The notes: a model not told the origin generated them from the letters alone. Positions 27,840 through 32,875 are shown, numbered from the whole stretch's first letter. The stretch is DNA of 62,108 bases, filler included, from Fonticula-like sp. SCN 57-25 (GCA_001724245.1; 9 parts of 9 records of this genome joined end to end with filler, not necessarily neighbours in it), one strand, 5' to 3'. A program made the numbers and translations.

Positions 27840-30800
27840 CTACCACGGCAGATCGGACTCCTTAGAGTTTACTTGACCAGGCGTCAGTCTGCGCAGCCTA
27901 TAGCGGCATTGCCCAATCTTGGCCTGGTTTTCAATAGGGATATCCAAAACACTCGCGCGATCGATCACGGCCAAATTCGCATCCGAAGGCCCGAGGCAAA
28001 GAGGATGCGCTTGCGCATAGAATGACATTCCAATGTTGCTACCTTGGCTTGAAATGATCTCATAGTCATGGTTGATCGGGAGATAGGGCTGCAGGAAAGG
28101 ATTATTGAACGTCGCGTTGAGCGAATCTGTAATGTAGAATAACACCGGGTGGATCACGGCGGCCTCATCCTCAGGGTTGGCCGGGACAGGAGGAGACGTG
28201 ATGAAAACGACAGCTTCCATGTCAAAGTAGACCGCGTCGTTGATCCCAGCCAAATAGAACAGACCTTTCGAGCCCATGAACGCAGCGCCTTGATTATCCA
28301 GCGCGTCGGCGCACACCAGCCGGAAAACATATTTTTTCATCTCTGCAGAATCAAAGGAAACGCTATTCGTAGTATCGACCTTATGTGCGCTCAGCGTCGT
28401 GTATGCGCTCGCCGAGGAGAGCAAGGACATGCGTGGGGTACTACCCAAATCGAGCAGCGACGTCGCATTAGCAAAAGAAGCGTTCCAGCGTTCCAGCAAA
28501 TAAGCCTCGTTTTCGCCGACGAGAATGAGCTCGCCGTTAGATCCAAACATGACATGCTCGGCAAATGAAGCAAGACCACCAATGTAATCGAAGGCCGACT
28601 CGACGGTGCTATTACCGTTGATGTAAACAGTGTCGTTCCAAATGGCAATCCAATCGCCCTGCTTCTGAAACAAAAGTGGGCGCTGCTCCAGCCAATCAGC
28701 GGTTAGAATCTCTGCAGGAGCAGTCAACAAGCCGCTGAGCAGCGCGAAGCTATAACCGTCCCGTTGAGTTGGCTCCGGACTGCAGCGCAGCGAGGGAAGC
28801 GCAGATGAGTGAGCCTCAAGAGAGCAGATAACTGTGACGGCCACAAGTTCATTGATGCCAGAATCCGCCAAGGATTTGATGAAAAGGAAGCGGCTCATGT
28901 GGAGCGGGAGCCGCCTCGTACCTCCCCGGCCCGCCATAAACGGGATTGGACCGGAGGATTTCGAAGGGTCTGGCGAGAATGGAATGAAAGCGTCCGGACC
29001 ATCGGAGAAGGGAAACGGCGCTTTCGTCATGACCTCATTCAATCGCTCCGCTCGACAGGTGGCCTGGCCTTGGAATGGGGATAGCGCGACAGGCACAGTG
29101 GGGCTGCACGTCCACACGATGGTACCATCGAAAAATATCACAGCGGCTCTGTTGGCGCCCGCATCAAAGAAGTAAGCTCCCGTCGAAGCGCGAGTGCTCA
29201 AAAAGGATACGTTCGAATCACGGATCAACTCGATCACGCCCGTCGATTCGCTTGCATGCATGAAAACGGTCGAATCCTGGACCCCATCATCGCCGAGCCA
29301 CTCAAAGGTAACGTAGTCCAAGCAGCGAATGTCGGTCTCCTCGTTCGGGTTGACGGCATCCGGGGGGCAATAGGTGCCGTTAGAATACTTGCAATAGTAC
29401 TGGCTCAGTTGGCAAGCGCGCGTGATCAAATCATCTGCCGCTGTCGAGTTCACATCAGGCCCAAAAAAAAGCTCAGGATTAGAAAACAAGGTCGATATTT
29501 CGTCGACTTGAATCACTAATGGTACGGGGTTTTCCCTTACGGTGGTTGACCAAATCTTGAGGCTTTCGGTATTTCCGTCCGCGATGTCGGCGGAGGCAAC
29601 CGGTTGGCCACCTAGGTACCATTCAAGCGAAGAGGCCGACATGGTAGCTAGGGTCGACCGCGCTTCCGTTTGGAGCTGAGCGCTGACGTCAACCGAAGAT
29701 GAGGCGGAGAGGAACTCAAAGTTGGCTTCGACACTGGTGGAAAGAGCAGCGCCTATCACGGTTTGCTGGAAGCTTGCATATTCGCTTTGCGTCATCGCAT
29801 AACGTTGGCTTGCCACACCACCCATCACCGCCATCGTCGAAAAATGGGTCCCGTACGTTTCCAGAAAGTGCGAGTAGGCCAGGTTGTCTTCCGGCGAACA
29901 TTGGAGCGTCGCAGCTGTTGGGCAAGTGCTGACCTCCGTTTCACAAACAGGAAGGCCAAGCACTGCCGCAACGAACACACCGTCGAGTTCGAATGATGGG
30001 CGCAGCCGCGCGCGATAGTAAACTGTGCTGGAGTCGATCTGCACATACTTGGATTTGGACCGCGCCGTTTCCTCCCGAATATGCTGGTAGGAAGCGCTGG
30101 CCGAAAAGCGTCCATTAAACATTGTGTCGGCAGAAACCGAAGCCCCGATAGATACGGCCATATCCAAGGTGTCCTTGTACGCTTGTTCGCTGGCATACGA
30201 CGTCGAATGAGATGTAAAGGTCGATGACGTTTCTTCGGTAACATCAGCGTAGTCGGGGAGCGGGAAGGCGCCATCGCCCGAGAAGCGACCAAGTTCGAAA
30301 GACTGCCGAATCACAGGTTGCGTGAATCCAGGATCCACTTTACCGGTCGTTTCGCGAGGGTTCGCGATAAAGATATTGTAGCCACGACCGAGGAAGCCAA
30401 TGTTGGGGTAGCTCGCCCCACTCGGTGCAACAGGCATGCTGGCGGCTCGCTCCGCGGCGCGCCGGTCCAGGATGGCTTCTGCCGCCTCCGCTTCCGCAAT
30501 TCCCCTCGGTAGGTCGGCTGCCAAGCGGGCGTCATCCAAAATTTGCGCAAACAGGTTGCTCGCGTAGCCTGCCTTTTCCTTCGACACTGACGCATCGGCA
30601 GCAATCGTCTCGTATGAAGCGGTGGACATGGATTCCAAAATGGCTGTCCGAATGCGAGACTCCTCCGCCAGCAAAAACTCAACCTCCTCGCCATTCGCGC
30701 TAGGCAGCGTGGCTGTCGGCGTCGCCATAGTCGTTGTTGTGGTGCTCGGCACGCTTGCAGTCTTCACCTTTAAAACAAAACTTCCCGTGTCGTTTCTAAA

Positions 30801-31395
30801 GCCCGAGACCAGCACATAGTAATCAAAGCCGACTTGAGACCAAAATGATACGGTAGACGTGTTCATGGCCACTTCGGGTGCAGGCAACGGGTTCGACAGG
30901 CACGGGGCGCTTTCGTTGGACGCCTTGCAGAGGAATTGATCGCATGAGCCACCGGAGGGTGTTTCAAACACGGTCAGGACGGTCGCGAATGAGGTAGCAC
31001 CGGAGCAAGTCGTGGCAGTAACAGTTGCGCCAGTTCCTGCGAAAACAATCCAACGACTAGGGATGCGATGTTAGACGAACGCTGCACGAAAGCAAGAAGC
31101 GCGCACCCTGGGTCGGCTGCCGATACGCCACAGGTTTCGCCAACCATCTCGCCTGCAGCTTCGCTCGAAAGTGCCAGGTACGAAGGAAAAAGCACCCCCC
31201 ACGTTGTCACGCCGAGGCGCGGTGCCGTCGGGCATGCGGCCATTGCTACAGAGAATTCGTCATCCAAATCAGCATTCAGCGTAAAAAAATGAGTGCAAAC
31301 GCACCGCCATGGGGAGCAACGAAGAGAAGCACAGCAGCTAAAACGGCGGTGTACCAATGAAAAAGAAGCGACAGGCGCTTCTTCGAGGCTACCAT
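27840..31395 (-). CDS. Secreted MACPF/perforin-like protein A (about 1150 aa): signal peptide, PPC-like domain, Thr-rich linker, MACPF, long C-terminal region
   Basis: Exons 31395-31305, 31245-31107, 31056-27840 join in frame; IGFLGRGYNIFIANP...DPGF; FLETYGTHFSTMAVMGG MACPF signature; WSTTVRENPVPL. Confidence 0.9.
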
Positions 31396-31570
31396 CTCAG
31401 GTATGCCACGATAGCACCCTGGAATCAACGCCAATCGACGTCTTCGTGGCAAAAAGGGGCCAGGTGCTCTCTGTGCACTGATTGGCTCTCCTGGTCACAA
31501 CAAAGACTGCTGATTGGAGCATCTGATTTTTGACAGTTTGGCACACGCGGCGCCTTTCTTCGCCACCAGC

Positions 31571-32875
31571 ATGAGGAAAGGATCGGCGGCCGCCTACTTT
31601 CTCATAGCCGCCATCCTGTGGCAGGCTGTAGCCTCTGCCGAGGATGACGACCATCTGAAGGGCTTATGTTTTGAGCCCTTTGCGGAACCGTTTGCCTCTT
31701 TGAATGGCCAAGAAACTCTCGCTGGAGCTGCTTTTACGAAGGCAGGGCTGGATGTCGTAACCGCCGCCGTGCAAAGTCCAGGTGCGTACCAAAGTGTGCT
31801 TTAATAATAAAGCTTGTTATTGTGCTTAATGCGTGTCATGGATGTTTAATTAACTTTACTTGATTTTTAAACAGATGCCAGTACCGCCGCTTATGTTTCC
31901 AAGCATGCTGCTGTCAAAACAACCATCCTGCAAAGCAAGGAGGAGGAGGCCTATGTGAGCCTGTCCGCAGATCACCTGGTGCAACAGGCGACCGCCGAGT
32001 TTTCCAAGGGTATGCACTTTAGACACGGCTCTGTTGCTTGTGATTATCGTTGCTGATGTCTCATGATCCCTTCTAGAAACGCTGGCGCACGCGGCGTACA
32101 CTGCTCGCTTGAACGCCCTCGTTGCAAACCTCACTGCCGATGCCGAGGTGGCCGTTTTTAAAGCCCGTCAAAGACTAGGTGCGTTTAGTCACAATTGTTT
32201 TGAACGCCGCATATTCACATGTGCCCCCATCGACAGCCGAAGCAAAAGCCGCCCTCCGCGTGCAACCTCGAGCCACGTCCCTTCGCAACATTCAGTTCGT
32301 TGGGCGTGGCTACAACCTTGTCGAGGGTTGTCCCCGAGAACCGTCGGGGAAAATCGACTCCGGTTTTCGACTGCCCGTGATTGACCAGGTGTACTTTCAC
32401 GGGCAGTACACTCCAGACGGGCTTTATGCGCTACCTGACCATATCGACGCTGTGCAGCTGCCTAGTGCTACGCTCTCATCCACGGTGACGAAGATGACGC
32501 AGGAGGCCCAGTACAAGAAACAACTCGATGCTTCCGTCGAAGTGTCGGCCGCTGCATCGATGGAGCGCTTGTTTGAAACCCGCTTTAGCGCCTCAGTGAC
32601 GTATCAGTCGACCGCCGAGTCGCTAAGGAAAGATGACAGCAACTTTGTGGATATCGAAGCGCAAGTCTCCAGCTACCGAGCGTCTATCAAGCTCCCCCCG
32701 ACGTCCCGTGACCTTCCTCTTTCGGAGGACTTTCGTGCCGCCGTGAAAACTTTGCCGCTGTCGGCCGAAACCGAGGAGCTGAAGGAGGTGTTCAAGTCAT
32801 TCGTCGCCAACTTTGGAACCCACTACGCAAACACGGTTTGGTTCGGAGGGACTGCGACACAACGGTATATGCTCA
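31571..32875 (+). CDS. Secreted MACPF/perforin-like protein B, truncated at gap
   Basis: Signal peptide MRKGSAAAYFLIAAILWQAVASA; introns 31782-31874, 32010-32076, 32179-32236; IQFVGRGYNLVEGCP...DSGF; FVANFGTHYANTVWFGG. Confidence 0.9.

Follow-up and report, generated by a model that had tools for sequence, protein, structure and literature searches.

Animal immunity and apicomplexan parasites alike use pores built from MACPF proteins as central weapons; to our knowledge, the use of such proteins by free-living protists is poorly known. MACPF proteins oligomerise on a membrane, where helical clusters are converted into the beta-hairpins of a barrel, and the hetero-oligomeric MACPF pores that we know to be established come from few systems, namely complement, the fish toxins and the bacterial CDC-like pairs. 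The subject of the present study is a head-to-head pair of MACPF genes, here called A (minus strand) and B (plus strand), at positions 27840-32875 of a DNA stretch of 62,108 nucleotides assigned to Fonticula-like sp. SCN 57-25 (GCA_001724245.1); by the window we mean this whole stretch. Both genes belong to MACPF by profile, by motif and, for A, by fold, and the divergent A/B pair, which is conserved on a second contig, is an interesting addition to that assignment. The original prediction saw in the pair a candidate two-component pore-forming system. We favour, at a probability of roughly 0.55, the reading that A and B each form pores autonomously, differ in their targeting regions and are deployed side by side.

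Among the described systems, the apicomplexan perforin-like proteins (PLPs; Toxoplasma PLP1, Plasmodium PPLP1-5) resemble the predicted products of A and B in being protist MACPF proteins that are secreted and carry an extension at the N-terminus and a membrane-binding region at the C-terminus, and there are several paralogues per genome. Three of the Plasmodium proteins share the same knockout phenotype and were proposed to act in one complex (PMC6089593). The Toxoplasma protein (TgPLP1) is 17-18% identical to A in a structural alignment, and the apicomplexan proteins offer no shown counterpart to three further parts of A described below, namely its three-helix segment, its C-terminal region and its extra N-terminal domain. 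A limited literature search, which brought up no paper on apicomplexans, found no head-to-head arrangement among apicomplexan PLPs. Fish toxins of the stonustoxin kind come from animal venom and are not known to have a signal peptide. Stonustoxin-like toxins act as hetero-oligomers; the genes of their two homologous subunits are clustered, and the alpha and beta types fall into separate clades (PMC10566576). Two paralogous subunits of like size and like build, falling into clades, are the same pattern as that of the A and B types; the hetero-oligomer is established for stonustoxin and would be a conjecture for A and B. Stonustoxins are not close to A in sequence, nor are they among the structural matches listed for it. 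In the complement membrane attack complex, paralogous MACPF proteins (C6, C7, C8 alpha/beta and C9) join in one hetero-oligomeric pore, and the structural matches to A include C8 beta, C9, C6 and C8 alpha. The accessory domains differ; TSP1/EGF domains occur in the distant A relatives P0008 and P0013 and are absent from A and B. What complement and stonustoxin share with A/B is the existence of distinct, conserved paralogue types; physical association, which defines those systems, and ordered assembly as in complement would be conjectures for A/B.

In other systems the partners are unequal. The long and short CDCL proteins of Bacteroidota form pairs that assemble in the manner of the membrane attack complex (PMC11952106), and the two components of pleurotolysin A/B are jointly needed for a pore (PMC4318580). 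In both cases the partners are adjacent or co-produced and need each other for a giant beta-barrel pore, one of them binding the membrane and the other being without a binding domain or of a different fold (aegerolysin). The arrangement of A and B has a parallel in NveMAC5 and NveMAC6 of Nematostella, which are likewise neighbouring MACPF paralogues standing head to head, reportedly with separate promoters and with neurons versus nematocytes as their sites (10.1101/2023.10.30.564692). MACPF proteins are known in non-animal eukaryotes, Pythium being an example (PMC5635513). A limited search of the literature for MACPF together with 'head-to-head' found no protist gene pair, and the arrangement may still have been reported.

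How does the present locus compare with these systems? The start codon of A is found at 31395 (minus strand) and that of B at 31571 (plus strand), with 175 bp between them, exactly as the original prediction had it. Its assignment of both genes to MACPF was borne out by a hidden Markov model check against Pfam PF01823, whose gathering score is 21.5 bits: the large exon of gene A matches with an E-value of 1.1e-20 and 75.2 bits (exon residues 321-530), and exon 4 of gene B with 1.5e-13 and 51.9 bits (profile positions 2-92 of 214). The MACPF domain of A (29466-30407, minus strand) extends from NIGFLGRGYN through the signature YGTHFSTMAVMGG (29817-29855) to the end of the fold; in B the N-terminal half of the domain (32284-32875, plus strand) runs from NIQFVGRGYN to the signature FGTHYANTVWFGG (32812-32850) and then breaks off. 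The entry block and the MACPF signature announced for each gene were found in their places, the former as GRGYN...DPGF in A and GRGYN...DSGF in B, the latter as GTH-x7-GG in both. The MACPF signature is worded (Y/W/F)-G-(T/S)-H-(F/Y)-x6-G-G. Over 226 amino acids A and B are 36% identical (E 1e-40). The predicted homology of the helical segment ahead of the domain was recovered too: about 90 residues align between A and B and also with A' and B', the corresponding proteins of the second contig. G-T-H and G-G are invariant in the alignment of all four.

The fold was modelled for A, B being too truncated for this. In the AlphaFold2 model of A, obtained from an alignment of 83 rows with a mean pLDDT of 82.5 and a pTM of 0.75, residues 156-173, 222-237 and 290-307 form long strands and residues 176-218 and 309-357 are helical, in keeping with the MACPF fold of a bent central sheet and two helical clusters. 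A Foldseek search of the PDB with this model gave 67 matches at E<=0.001, and all matches listed are of the MACPF type. The top match is the MACPF domain of TgPLP1 (5own_A, E 6.6e-18, TM 0.74 by target length), followed by MPEG1, perforin, C8 beta, Mpf2Ba1 and C9. Ahead of the domain the model predicts three long helices (30438-30692, minus strand; model residues 8-30, 37-66 and 70-92), in a block with a pLDDT of 51-83. We also judged the amphipathicity of the hairpin regions of the four proteins against 500 shuffles. By this crude measure, the peak beta hydrophobic moment reached p<0.05 in three of the four predicted hairpin regions of the A type (A, A') and in none of the three of the B type (B, B'). 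Complex modelling of the MACPF domains of A' and B' gave a score of 0.34, and one control scored higher (0.43); the score speaks neither for nor against binding.

The second contig carries the evidence on the history of the pair. P0002, which at 45% identity is closer to A than any other entry of the protein collection, is located on a metagenome contig of 7446 bases, L001, and this contig has the same divergent A-type/B-type pair. A' lies on one strand and B' on the opposite one; the last exon of B' has 1011 codons and reaches the end of L001 without a stop. Between the start codons as modelled there are about 350 bp, compared with 175 bp in the window. The matches of A' and B' to PF01823 reach 78.5 and 78.1 bits. 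A and A' are 45% identical over 415 amino acids and B and B' 45% over 211 amino acids without gaps, as against 34% for A and B' and 36% for A and B. A maximum-likelihood tree was made of 45 MACPF regions, namely those of A, B, A' and B' and 41 of the hits of the protein searches, with the duplicates P0002, P0005 and P0006 dropped. In this tree B joins B' with an SH-aLRT of 99 and A joins A' with 97, P0007 and P0010 being attached to the A group (95), which agrees with the view of A and B as diverged paralogues; motifs specific to each type are visible in the four-protein alignment. The introns tell a similar story. B and B' have three introns in the same places, all of phase 1, and A' has two, at the places of introns 2 and 3 of B. 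Since intron positions are shared by B, B' and A', common descent includes the region ahead of the MACPF domain, and A has lost the two introns that A' keeps. Taken together, the tree and the introns imply that the A/B duplication is old: it happened before the two loci separated, and the head-to-head order has been preserved ever since. The pairing noted in the original prediction is therefore more than a one-off, as it recurs head to head at 45% protein identity. Both types are kept at both loci, with frames open as far as the contigs reach. The scan of metagenome contigs for paired loci yielded this one locus, and no relative came up when the A/B alignment was used to scan prokaryote genome contigs and, separately, viral contigs. 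A wider protein search returned 897 proteins at E<=0.001, of which just 20 were at E<=1e-30, so the close family is small.

The exon models of both genes were built from GT..AG sites and reading frame alone. Gene A as a whole occupies 27840-31395 on the minus strand, from the ATG at 31395 to a TAG stop at 27840-27842, and encodes 1148 modelled amino acids. Its exons are 31305-31395, 31107-31245 and 27840-31056 (the last including the stop), separated by GT..AG introns at 31246-31304 and 31057-31106. The spliced model is in frame and free of internal stops, and the list of open reading frames (ORFs) has a single frame of 1076 codons at 27840-31070 for this gene. The acceptor at 31056 is supported by foreign repeat-domain alignments, which begin at residues 43-69 and cross the junction of exons 2 and 3. 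P0001 is the same protein in other assemblies, on three contigs of which the longest has 9551 bases. It has A where the window has T at about 30197-30199 (...DVTEETSST...; TEEA versus TEET) and is otherwise identical over 1043 residues.

The part of gene B that is present, 31571-32875 on the plus strand, comprises exons at 31571-31781 (with the ATG at 31571), 31875-32009, 32077-32178 and 32237-32875 and phase-1 GT..AG introns at 31782-31874, 32010-32076 and 32179-32236. Exon 4 is cut by the end of the contig in the middle of the MACPF domain, after 362 codons without a stop. With two introns modelled in A and three in B, the intron patterns do differ, as had been observed earlier. Contigs of the metagenome run X2, one of which extends 269 bases past 32875, differ from the window at eight sites within 77 bases of exon 4 (32303-32379); by our own count four of the sites fall on the third base of a codon, and the differences are a strain or allele variant in another sample.

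The N-termini of both proteins resemble signal peptides, as predicted, by a heuristic that looks for two or three basic residues followed by a hydrophobic stretch. In A this N-terminus, MVASKKRLSLLFHWYTAVLAAVLLFVAPHG, is encoded by exon 1 (31305-31395, minus strand) and has three basic residues among the first eight and a peak Kyte-Doolittle mean of 3.22 over 10 residues; in B, basic residues are likewise followed by a hydrophobic core. Beyond this the N-termini are different, which had also been noticed: A has an extra domain of about 110 amino acids (30747-31168, minus strand), split by intron 2, which is of the spliceosomal type. The domain is absent from B and B', and A' on L001 is also without it. 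It is 31-43% identical to a unit that is present two to eight times in long proteins, and Pfam gave no family for it at E up to 1. Of 11 such long proteins scanned, four have a Por_Secre_tail of the type IX secretion system, on which basis these are probably surface proteins of Bacteroidota; one of the 11 has a weak, sub-threshold PPC match. The N-terminal domain of A may be of bacterial origin, or it may merely be a widespread domain that has not been curated.

Behind the MACPF domain A continues with a C-terminal region of about 540 amino acids (27843-29465, minus strand), for which Pfam gave nothing at E up to 1 besides an implausible match at 0.13. Its last 170-180 amino acids or so (27843-28385) form a terminal domain common to A' and B' and to P0011. 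The final ~170 amino acids of A align with A' by phmmer (domain E 5e-11), and a profile of A, A' and B' also retrieves P0011 (E 9.4e-07). Between A and A' the middle of the C-terminal region cannot be aligned, and the presumed targeting part of these proteins evolves fast. A model of the C-terminal 476 amino acids of A, made from an alignment of three rows, had a mean pLDDT of 30. For the terminal domain, Atlas feature leads at 0.79-0.81, which are low-scoring, were mostly beta-trefoil families (AbfB, RicinB_lectin_2, Fascin), and a profile search of PDB sequences found matches at chance level only (E 0.64). The overall order of modules is the same in A, A' and B', namely signal, helical segment, MACPF domain, long C-terminal region and related terminal domain. 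This shared architecture concerns these three proteins, B being known as far as the middle of its MACPF domain.

The spacer between the start codons (31396-31570, 175 bp) would hold both 5' untranslated regions and any shared promoter. Two CTGATTGG motifs (reverse CCAAT-type) lie in it, at 31478 and 31510; with five in the window against 1.64 expected, a number that two of 100 shuffles reach, the enrichment is marginal. No convincing alignment was obtained between this spacer and that of L001. With start codons only 175-350 bp apart at the two loci, it is probable that A and B have regulatory DNA in common and are often produced together. A single bidirectional promoter in the spacer, and a role of the pair in prey killing, the phagosome or defence, as put forward in the original prediction, would be conjectures.

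It is this sameness of the modules that leads us to regard A and B as autonomous. We hypothesize that the old paralogues A and B go back to a single gene, encoding a secreted MACPF pore former, that was duplicated in inverted orientation. A signal peptide would direct each protein into the secretory pathway. In each, the three-helix segment would precede a MACPF domain that oligomerises on the target membrane, and, by analogy with the family, the two helical clusters would refold into beta-hairpins and build a beta-barrel pore. The C-terminal region, ending in the shared domain of ~170 amino acids, probably selects the target, and the extra N-terminal domain of A may be an addition of the binding type. 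What the analysis establishes is the family, the fold of A, the paralogy, the kept arrangement and the architecture in common, whereas secretion, pore formation, co-expression and autonomy are inferences. In favour of the hypothesis are the two PF01823 scores above the cut-off, the intact signature and entry motifs, the likeness of the confidently modelled fold of A to solved pore formers, and the divergent pair of L001 with its tree and introns. Neither partner, as far as the predicted proteins go, seems to resemble a stripped-down helper. Pleurotolysin, which the original prediction named as a precedent, does not fit for the same reason, A, A' and B' carrying the same full set of modules, and the type of system made of a binder and a pore former (pleurotolysin A/B, CDCL long/short) was rejected as a counterpart, its partners being unequal.

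Several points weigh against autonomy. The C-terminus of B lies beyond the sequence seen here, and the gene of B' is likewise incomplete on L001. An obligatory partnership would explain equally well why neither locus has lost one of the types. None of the three hairpin regions of B and B' came out as amphipathic by the crude measure, and the B type could instead be an accessory subunit. Is L001 another species, or is it a second locus of the same genome? It can be either: GC content, GC content at third codon positions (GC3) and codon usage (r ~0.7 among all genes compared) tell L001 and the window neither apart nor together. Shared regulation, moreover, is read from the spacing of the genes. 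A short spacer is also a small target for rearrangement, and the kept adjacency may be neutral and functionally silent.

The strongest rival is a true two-subunit pore, in which A and B hetero-oligomerise, either as a stonustoxin-like heterodimer or by ordered recruitment as in C5b-C9, and are co-expressed from the spacer. That A-type and B-type genes stand head to head at two loci differing by about 55% in protein sequence, and that neither locus has given up one of the types, speaks for such a pore; so do the less amphipathic hairpins of the B type (none of three, against three of four at p<0.05 in the A type, again by the crude measure), and stonustoxin-like toxins, CDCL long/short pairs and the Plasmodium perforin-like proteins are precedents. 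On the other hand, both types have a full module set including the C-terminal domain, unlike the short CDCL or pleurotolysin A, and adjacency across a spacer of 175-350 bp can last without selection. NveMAC5 and NveMAC6 are arranged head to head and yet have separate promoters and different cell types, so orientation alone is weak evidence. We disfavour obligatory halves of one pore and regard a two-subunit pore as a serious but rather unlikely alternative. The same tentative standing applies to its most explicit form, according to which A and B would be obligatory subunits of a complement- or stonustoxin-like pore in free-living microbial eukaryotes, held as a fixed divergent pair under one shared promoter, with the more amphipathic A type building the barrel and the B type starting or steering its assembly.

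A MACPF protein need not kill, and some animal and plant members of the family act non-lytically. Could A and B serve development, signalling or adhesion rather than killing? The review literature includes conserved perforin-like proteins that work by other mechanisms (PMC5483515), Astrotactin-2 turns up among the structural matches, albeit low in rank (26), and the hairpin regions of the B type are weakly amphipathic. However, the best structural matches are pore formers, the signature and both helical clusters are present in A, the N-termini resemble secretion signals, and three of the four hairpin regions of A and A' came out as amphipathic by the crude measure. A non-lytic role appears improbable to us.

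The end of gene B needs a separate comment. P0025, the same ORF in another assembly, continues for 27 residues past ...QRYML and then stops; these residues resemble no MACPF sequence. A search for longer proteins with exon 4 of B and another with residues 243-1011 of B' for the rest of B both found none; these are weak negatives, each depending on shared five-residue words and on length limits. The available sequence ends in ...CTCA and P0025 goes on with S-M-R, which fits A/GTATGCG (the slash marking the end of the exon), a phase-1 donor like those of the other three introns of B. The tail of P0025 is for this reason more simply read as an intron that the ORF caller ran through, and, the protein collection consisting of ORF-style calls, later exons of B would be separate short entries in it. 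That B is a broken copy, truncated or frameshifted right after the contig end and leaving only A functional here, may be suggested by the P0025 tail and the two empty searches, but we consider it very improbable in view of this donor site, the 362 codons without a stop and the 45% identity of the exon-4 part (211 amino acids) to B' without gaps.

The original prediction had also assumed a gap after 32875 that should be closed to complete gene B. What follows is an artificial linker (32876-32975) that joins two unrelated contigs, so there is no gap inside the MACPF locus and the sequence beyond is unrelated. The window is divided into nine pieces by eight identical joins of the form N44-TTAATTAATTAA-N44, the others being at 6227-6326, 12546-12645, 20255-20354, 26570-26669, 43290-43389, 49567-49666 and 55845-55944. 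Six of the nine pieces have 6177-6226 bases and stand in falling order, and two are bigger, with 7609 and 10314 bases. Runs of N with TTAATTAATTAA in the record are joins of unrelated contigs and not closable gaps; adjacent pieces have no physical linkage, and any finding that spans a linker would be an artefact. The MACPF pair lies within one contig of 6206 bp, 26670-32875. Metagenome runs matching this region are labelled bioreactor, aquatic and wastewater, and DNA contigs of four runs cover the stretch at about 2-8x; among the ten runs listed for it there was no RNA run. Elsewhere in the window Pfam recognises dynamitin, mitochondrial carrier, FancD2 and SMC, which, together with the introns that the MACPF genes need, shows a eukaryotic source. 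The source of the gene pair is an uncultured microbial eukaryote, and the sequence is most likely from a genome binned out of a metagenome.

Some further features of the contig and the window may be mentioned. Just downstream of gene A, 27084-27497 has a depth of ~330x in run X1, compared with 4-8x over the genes, and many contigs end there; this is a repeat or a sequence common to other organisms. It contains no long ORF and has no Rfam match, and an Rfam scan of the whole contig found nothing at E<=0.01. A simple repeat of the (GA)n type, 27722-27768, lies between this stretch and the stop codon of gene A. GC3 is 0.61-0.66 in both MACPF genes (27843-32874) and 0.69-0.88 in five ORFs on other pieces (2607-3935, 11348-12223, 35957-36907, 40779-42089 and 55945-58545). 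Either the MACPF genes are compositionally unusual or the pieces of the window come from more than one organism.

What would the pair mean for the family? A conserved A/B pair is a simple test case for the question whether co-assembly of paralogues arose more than once. If A and B are autonomous, as we favour, they are one more lineage-specific expansion in a very large family. If they were to prove subunits of one pore, this would be a two-subunit MACPF system of a protist, independent in origin from animal complement.

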